Positions 32,308-32,479 of a DNA stretch of 40,893 nt are shown one piece after another. Every line of letters starts with the position of its first letter. Position 1 is the stretch's first letter. The position numbers and the translations under genes are program-made. This stretch comes from a phage. The DNA lies in sequence record PZ513996.1; one strand, given 5' to 3'. The notes under the pieces are model-generated. The model saw nothing but the letters and a program-made list of their open reading frames with translations, had not been told where the DNA came from and did not search any database.

Positions 32308-32311
32308 ATGG

Positions 32312-32479
32312 ATGGCAGACATAATGTCTTGGAACTGGGGGACAATCTCCTTCATAGTCGGTACGGTTGTAGCTGTACTGACCTTTGCATGGAACGCATA
32401 CTACAAACACAAAGAGTACAAGCTCAAGGAGCGAGCATTAGAGAAGGGCCTTGAATGCGGGCTAAGGTCGCTGGGTTAG
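32312..32479 (+). CDS. putative holin (single transmembrane), in a different frame from all other genes
   Basis: 55 aa in frame 2: MADIMSWNWGTISFIVGTVVAVLTFAWNAYYKHKEYKLKERALEKG; the frame-1 ORF over the same DNA (32308..32454) is not protein-like; 3' end depends on junction context. Confidence 0.45.
   Translation: MADIMSWNWGTISFIVGTVVAVLTFAWNAYYKHKEYKLKERALEKGLECGLRSLG

Follow-up and report, generated by a model that had tools for sequence, protein, structure and literature searches.

Phages related to KP34 carry a compact lysis cassette composed of a spanin gene, a gene for a holin of about 83 aa and a SAR endolysin gene, and their holins have been inferred to be pinholins (PMC4411677). 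The KP34 unimolecular spanin (u-spanin) is a member of the T1 gp11 family; a pinholin and a SAR endolysin occur together with the spanin in almost every phage of this family (PMC6139136). The holin itself can also be compared with S21 of phage 21, in which the glycine-zipper positions G40, S44 and G48 were implicated in pinhole formation (PMC9025707).

The locus analysed here has the same composition. Judged by its sequence, the native cassette is of the published KP34 type, with a u-spanin, a holin and an R21-like SAR endolysin. The holin resembles those of KP34-like phages (Drulisvirus / Slopekvirinae) in gene order, in size, in its charged C-terminus and in the SAR endolysin gene that adjoins or overlaps it, the identity being approximately 54 % over 95 % of the length (approximately 46 % divergence). 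The host in this case is E. coli K1, whereas the KP34-like phages infect Klebsiella. In the DNA as presented, the place of the holin gene is taken by an open reading frame (ORF) in a different frame, 32308..32454, and the origin of this replacement was the main subject of the analysis.

Composition of the window and the native lysis locus

The window, i.e. the whole stretch of 40,893 nt that was analysed, is an artificial splice of called ORFs and not natural DNA. Positions 1..40893 consist of 59 such ORFs (tiles), all in frame 1 and each directly abutting the next in head-to-tail orientation, without any spacer, overlap or intergenic bases. All 59 are ORFs of Escherichia phage vB_EcoP_P64441 or of an identical genome, as they match exactly the record PQ847473.1 (42,960 bp; Autographivirales, Autoscriptoviridae, Slopekvirinae). 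The tiles follow ascending record coordinates, each flipped to its sense strand. As the record has almost all of its genes on the minus strand, they appear in the window in an order opposite to that of transcription. A block at record 31562..33648, comprising the tail fibre gene and two small ORFs, was moved to the front of the window, and one tile derives from the plus strand of the record (21457..21579). Because the window is an ORF splice, every feature of its junctions, be it an overlap, a read-through or the order of neighbouring genes, is artificial.

Two distant parts of the window, 1828..3213 and 38380..40893, were found to be halves of one gene for an internal virion protein / lytic transglycosylase, split where the circular record has its origin. 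The cut ends were patched: neither the TAA that closes the former tile nor the ATG that opens the latter occurs in the record at these places, and both are synthetic.

The native order of genes in the record is terminase large subunit, a 60-aa protein, putative spanin, holin, endolysin and tail fibre. The GenBank holin (XXQ42885.1) is encoded at PQ847473.1 34190..34438 on the minus strand (249 nt) and comprises 82 aa, MSLPINGETITRVGTNVSVATMGGGWMADIMSWNWGTISFIVGTVVAVLTFAWNAYYKHKEYKLKERALEKGLEYYEHKQQG. In the native locus (L001) the spanin gene occupies 2687..3112, the holin gene 3096..3344 and the endolysin gene 3322..3876, the holin gene overlapping the spanin gene by 17 nt and the endolysin gene by 23 nt. 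The first-pass annotation had considered that the lysozyme gene might natively follow the holin gene, and the order in PQ847473.1 proved this right. The classic ATGA stop/start overlap expected from such an arrangement is absent from the native genome: the tile and the lysozyme ATG are separated by five untiled bases (ATACT, holin nt 222-226), and the holin frame reads on. The 3' end of the holin gene reads ...KGLEYYEHKQQG*, stopping 23 nt inside the lysozyme gene.

In the window the holin gene is present in scattered pieces. Its nt 1-17 form the end of the spanin tile (32864..32880, + strand), with the true start codon ATG at 32864..32866 (MSLPI..), and nt 18-74, a stretch of 57 nt that begins within codon 6 and reaches through codon 25, are absent. 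The tile 32308..32454 (+ strand) corresponds to nt 75-221, the five bases mentioned above are found in no tile, and nt 227-249 form the start of the endolysin tile (31753..31775, + strand; ..(Y)EHKQQG*). Altogether 62 of the 249 nt of the gene are missing from the window and only 147 nt are contiguous.

The SAR endolysin gene (31753..32307, + strand), natively placed directly downstream of the holin gene, encodes a GH24 lysozyme of 184 aa (PF00959, 6.9e-24; PHROG_7, 1.4e-40). The N-terminal SAR segment, VKAALAGTSLLGASIAMVI, is hydrophobic and rich in Gly, Ala and Ser, and a catalytic motif E29-x8-D38-x5-T44 was recognised in the sequence. The alignment with the phage 21 lysozyme (3hde_A) started from residue 4, so it included the SAR segment (E = 1.3e-13).

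The spanin gene (32455..32880, + strand; 141 aa) is natively directly upstream of the holin gene. Its product, a 'putative spanin' in GenBank, matched PHROG_1804 'Rz-like spanin' at 2.5e-39 and possesses a C-terminal TM helix (residues 105-123). Residues 14-21 (window 32468..32517) contain two consecutive candidate lipoboxes, LTGC (Cys17) and LVGC (Cys21). The lipobox, the C-terminal TM helix and the match to the spanin PHROG together identify the product of this upstream gene as a unimolecular spanin. In phage 21 the Rz/Rz1 spanin genes lie downstream, whereas the spanin here is unimolecular and encoded upstream of the holin.

The order spanin, holin, endolysin was conserved in three relatives (L004, L006 and L007), and the 17-nt overlap of the spanin and holin genes was conserved in L004-L007. 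The 23-nt overlap is missing in more distant relatives, where either other genes or a gap come after the holin gene. In the related metagenomic phages L004 (2324..3687) and L007 (2209..3832) two or three extra genes are present between the holin and lysozyme genes, and the products encoded in this interval include collagen-repeat (PF01391) proteins. The extra genes in distant relatives indicate that the tight overlap of the holin and endolysin genes is a peculiarity of this phage and those closest to it. Scanning of the native locus for sigma-70 promoters and terminators gave nothing above shuffle expectation; such a scan is uninformative here because the phage carries its own RNA polymerase.

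Coding frame and probable mode of action of the holin

The real gene over the DNA of the tile is that of the 82-aa holin of the phage 21 S / PF04971 family, read in frame 2. The 82-aa protein matched Pfam PF04971 (phage 21 holin S) with 30.8 bits (cutoff 26), its residues 14-66 covering profile positions 10-63 of 64, and PHROG_20 'holin' at 2.4e-19, in a match reaching N-terminally to residue 7. The fragment encoded in the window was sufficient for recognition by itself (PF04971, 27.7 bits against the same cutoff; PHROG_20, 4.4e-15). A precomputed PF04971 match was present in ten out of ten homologues, and the 82-aa sequence itself occurred on 17 contigs in a collection of 15 billion proteins. 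A tblastn search detected a homologue at approximately 54 % identity in 269 phage records, mostly of KP34-like phages (234 of the records are of Klebsiella phages); in the annotated ones it was mostly labelled as a holin and usually adjoined an endolysin gene.

The pattern of substitutions was analysed in L004, L006 and L007, whose holins are 67-78 % identical to the one studied at the protein level. Counted at holin codon positions 1/2/3, the substitutions numbered 14/6/34, 10/8/33 and 11/6/39 in the three relatives, the third position being the one most often changed. Codon usage was scored with a model trained on the long tiles of the window, in which genuine 48-codon pieces reach +26.6 ± 9.4 bits, and frame 2 obtained a log-likelihood ratio (LLR) of +19.3 bits. 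The first-pass annotation had suspected that whatever produced the segments chose the wrong frame for the holin, and five independent lines agree with this view, namely the PF04971 and PHROG_20 matches, the presence of the 82-aa sequence in the protein collection, the substitutions, the codon usage and the annotation of relatives. The GenBank CDS is in the same frame, and no observation ran counter to this view.

Read from ATG 32312, frame 2 gives MADIMSWNWGTISFIVGTVVAVLTFAWNAYYKHKEYKLKERALEKGLECGLRSLG* and, with its stop at 32477..32479, extends over the first 25 nt of the tile that follows (32455..32880). This run into the spanin gene had been described correctly for the window, and the junction itself is artificial. 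Positions 32309..32454 (+ strand, frame 2) correspond to holin codons 26-73 and 2 nt of codon 74, WMADIMSWNWGTISFIVGTVVAVLTFAWNAYYKHKEYKLKERALEKGL(E), and the read-through tail (..E)CGLRSLG* encoded by 32455..32479 (+ strand) is a product of the tile-spanin junction, present in no native protein. In the native genome the sequence past ...GGCCTTGA is ATACTATGAGC..., giving ...GLEYYEHKQQG*. The frame-2 ORF as listed mechanically (32261..32479, 72 aa) is chimeric at both ends as a result of the tile junctions.

The holin contains one strong TM helix at residues 35-53, WGTISFIVGTVVAVLTFAW (32336..32392, + strand), with a 19-residue Kyte-Doolittle mean of 1.75. It is followed by a charged, Lys/Glu-rich tail, the C-terminal 29 residues containing 7 K/R and 5 E. 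The initial description of the frame-2 product as a canonical single-TM protein is valid for the fragment present in the window, but not for the full protein, which has an extra, weakly hydrophobic segment at the N-terminus.

S21 is the prototype of the pinholins (class II holins), whose small, heptameric holes depolarise the membrane but do not let endolysin through. It has two TMDs, of which TMD1 is a weakly hydrophobic, SAR-like helix that leaves the membrane, and its dual-start motif yields the antiholin S21 71 and the holin S21 68 of this lambdoid phage. For comparison with S21 the form S21 71 was used; it is 100 % identical to the product of the locus annotated as 'antiholin' and 'holin class II' in Escherichia phage 21 (OL657228.1). 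The hhalign alignment placed holin residues 26-65 opposite S21 residues 27-66, ungapped and with 82 % probability, and brought W26, W35 and N54 of the holin onto W27, W36 and N55 of S21. The aligned stretch spans the loop, TMD2 and the first part of the C-terminal tail. In this register helix 35-53 corresponds to TMD2 of S21, and the zipper S39xxxG43xxxA47 stands opposite G40xxxS44xxxG48 of S21, with S39, G43 and A47 invariant in the homologues.

The N-terminal segment of the holin aligned with TMD1 of S21 in a multiple alignment that included bridging homologues. These came from a profile search of 1.84 billion representatives, which gave only 8 matches, a bridge to S21-like sequences but too few for a deep alignment. 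In the bridged register the mean Kyte-Doolittle value of the segment is 0.62, in comparison to 0.37 for S21 TMD1; 48 % of its residues are G/A/S/T and it holds D29. In the ungapped hhalign register the value is close to 0 (a hand estimate), with E8 and R12 inside the segment. An AlphaFold2 model based on ten sequences reached pLDDT 60 and pTM 0.30, with a helix at residues 7-22 at low confidence, and at these values it is too weak to be used for topology or a fold search.

The holin shares with S21 68 and S21 71 a PF04971 match above the threshold, the aligned W/N and zipper positions, a Gly/Ala/Ser/Thr-rich segment at the N-terminus that is comparable in length and hydrophobicity, and a partner endolysin homologous to R21. 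It differs from them in sequence (approximately 25-28 % identity), in a longer C-terminal tail, and in the charged residues of the N-terminal segment, which may not insert into the membrane. It also lacks the S21-type dual-start (antiholin/holin) motif, as there is one N-terminal Met and the next Met is residue 22. Membership in the Pfam family PF04971 does not depend on this motif, whose role is regulatory.

By homology to S21 and the type of its partner endolysin, the most likely role of the 82-aa holin is that of a pinholin. The protein would accumulate in the inner membrane in the N-out/C-in orientation, and helix 35-53 with its zipper S39-G43-A47 would oligomerise at the programmed time into small pores. 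Depolarisation of the membrane by these pores would lead to the release and activation of the R21-like SAR endolysin, and the u-spanin would then disrupt the outer membrane. The N-terminal segment would correspond to the inhibitory TMD1 of S21 and could be either transiently inserted or permanently periplasmic. A literature search yielded no experimental evidence for the pinholin mechanism in this holin family.

The same protein could be a canonical large-hole holin with a single TMD, 'class III-like', as first described for KP34. TOPCONS predicted one TMD in the KP34 homologues ('class III'; PMC4411677), the weak hydrophobicity and charged residues of the N-terminal segment fit such a topology, and SAR endolysins can work with canonical holins as well (PMC9025707). 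We nevertheless consider a large-hole holin unlikely here, given the homology to the S21 pinholin family above the Pfam threshold, the conservation of the zipper positions in the TMD2 register and a cognate endolysin of the R21 SAR type, which needs only depolarisation of the membrane.

Membership in class III proper (T4 T-like holins) was also considered and rejected: T4 T has 218 aa and a large periplasmic domain, so its size is very different, and the 82-aa holin is not known to resemble it.

Start codon of the holin gene

The first-pass annotation had placed the start of the holin at ATG 32312. This codon is Met27 of the 82-aa protein, and in the native gene the true ATG is located 78 nt upstream of it. 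The true start is preceded at a distance of 8 nt by the Shine-Dalgarno (SD) sequence TAAGGA (32850..32855, + strand; SD:anti-SD dG -5.7), and TAAGG(A/G) is conserved at this place in the phage studied and in four related loci. Ten homologues share the N-terminus MSLPI without exception, as they do G7, T9, R12, G14, A20-T21-M22 and G24-G25-W26. Position 27 is occupied by Val in five of the ten, and its codon is GTG in L006, the one relative examined at the DNA level.

A start at Met27 would give a native 56-aa single-TM protein, with the 26 upstream codons untranslated. The SD-like sequence GGCGGTGGA in front of Met27 shows the best anti-SD pairing among the candidates (dG -7.0), and the fragment starting there still matches the holin families by itself. 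However, the conservation of residues 1-26 as protein in ten homologues makes Met27 unlikely as the sole start. Beyond the tile region the substitutions remain biased towards the third codon position (3/0/8, 3/4/8 and 3/1/9, obtained by subtraction), the Pfam and PHROG matches extend N-terminally to residues 14 and 7, respectively, and the 56-aa form is absent from the collection of 15 billion proteins. Together with the replacement of Met27 by Val in half of the homologues and the conserved SD before Met1, this leaves very little room for Met27 as the only start, and the 82-aa protein starting at Met1 is taken as the product of the gene.

Met27 might serve instead as an additional, internal start, in view of the SD-like GGCGGTGGA and the GTG that relatives have at this position. 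A short form made in this way would be without the equivalent of TMD1 and would, by analogy, behave as an unrestrained pinholin; the analogy is with S21 lacking TMD1, reportedly described by Park et al. in 2006. Such a second start is improbable.

The open reading frame at 32308..32454 and other called segments

The tile 32308..32454 (+ strand) was called in frame 1 as an ORF of 48 aa, ATG...TGA, encoding MDGRHNVLELGDNLLHSRYGCSCTDLCMERILQTQRVQAQGASIREGP. It corresponds exactly to PQ847473.1 34218..34364 on the minus strand and to 3170..3316 in L001. The tile is no GenBank CDS; it sits inside the 'holin' CDS XXQ42885.1, framed one base off, and in the native locus it fits exactly into the space between the spanin stop codon and the endolysin start codon.

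The first-pass annotation had regarded the frame-1 peptide as non-protein-like, and all results obtained for it point the same way. It gave no Pfam or PHROG match at E ≤ 1, and its exact sequence was absent from the collection of 15 billion proteins. The frame is broken by 2-4 in-frame stops in each of the three relatives L004, L006 and L007. Its codon-usage LLR was -15.4 bits, approximately 4.5 sd below real coding pieces. The best 19-residue Kyte-Doolittle window reached only 0.31, which means that the peptide has no TM helix, in contrast to the value of 1.75 in frame 2, and a hydropathy scan revealed no signal sequence, TM helix or lipobox in it. The two frames therefore differ in the sense originally proposed, frame 2 having both a TM helix and holin homologues and frame 1 neither. 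Since the window contains 32 other out-of-frame ORFs of at least 48 aa on the + strand, a 48-codon ORF in frame 1 is no more than expected by chance.

We conclude, with a probability of about 0.93, that the tile 32308..32454 is a gene-calling artefact, a spurious out-of-frame ORF inside the real holin gene. A caller that disfavours overlaps, possibly a tiling one of the PHANOTATE type that penalises them, would have picked the 147-nt ORF in the -1 frame, which fits between both neighbours, and the real holin would have been dropped. Gene callers are known to perform poorly on small holin genes that overlap the genes on both sides. That both frames are real, with the frame-1 ORF as an embedded out-of-frame gene like Rz1 in Rz, e.g. 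a lysis regulator, could be argued from the embedded genes known in phage lysis cassettes (PMC6139136) and from its ATG with a weak SD-like sequence (dG -5.1), but it is effectively excluded by the stops in three of three relatives, and the lack of family and exact database matches, the poor codon score, the lack of signal sequence, TM helix and lipobox and the 32 similar chance ORFs speak against it as well.

Other tiles also differ from the GenBank annotation. Two tiles not in GenBank resemble real genes: 12964..13194 (76 aa; record 11469..11699), with a match to PHROG_3112 'virion structural protein' at 1.2e-17 and a codon score of +49 bits, and 16756..16854 (32 aa; record 15428..15526), with a match to PHROG_1312 at 4.6e-12 and a codon score of +23 bits. 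Five more small tiles not in GenBank (1..117, 118..264, 3214..3339, 10486..10581 and 22441..22563; record 31562..31678, 31739..31885, 1370..1495, 8964..9059 and +21457..21579, respectively) had zero PHROG matches and codon scores that were poor or indicated the wrong frame; GTG or TTG is the first codon in three of the five, and one derives from the opposite record strand (21457..21579). Like the holin tile, these five are probably chance ORFs that fill gaps.

Different start codons were chosen for three other tiles. The terminase large subunit tile (33064..34830) has 588 aa from ATG versus 607 aa from GTG in GenBank, the pentapeptide-repeat protein (28015..28551) 178 aa versus 195 aa, and the DNA polymerase part (22564..23751) 395 aa versus 383 aa. 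The GenBank CDS 7756..7950, encoding a hypothetical protein, is not represented by any tile.

As the holin is already annotated in GenBank and this type of cassette has already been described, the finding is biologically nothing new. Its value is in quality control, since a real, annotated lysis gene was replaced by a chance ORF in an ORF set. Should an internal start at Met27 operate in addition to Met1, the timing of lysis would depend on the proportion in which a long, self-inhibited form of the holin and a short, active one are made, and this dual start would be quite unlike the offsets of 2-3 residues in lambda S and S21.
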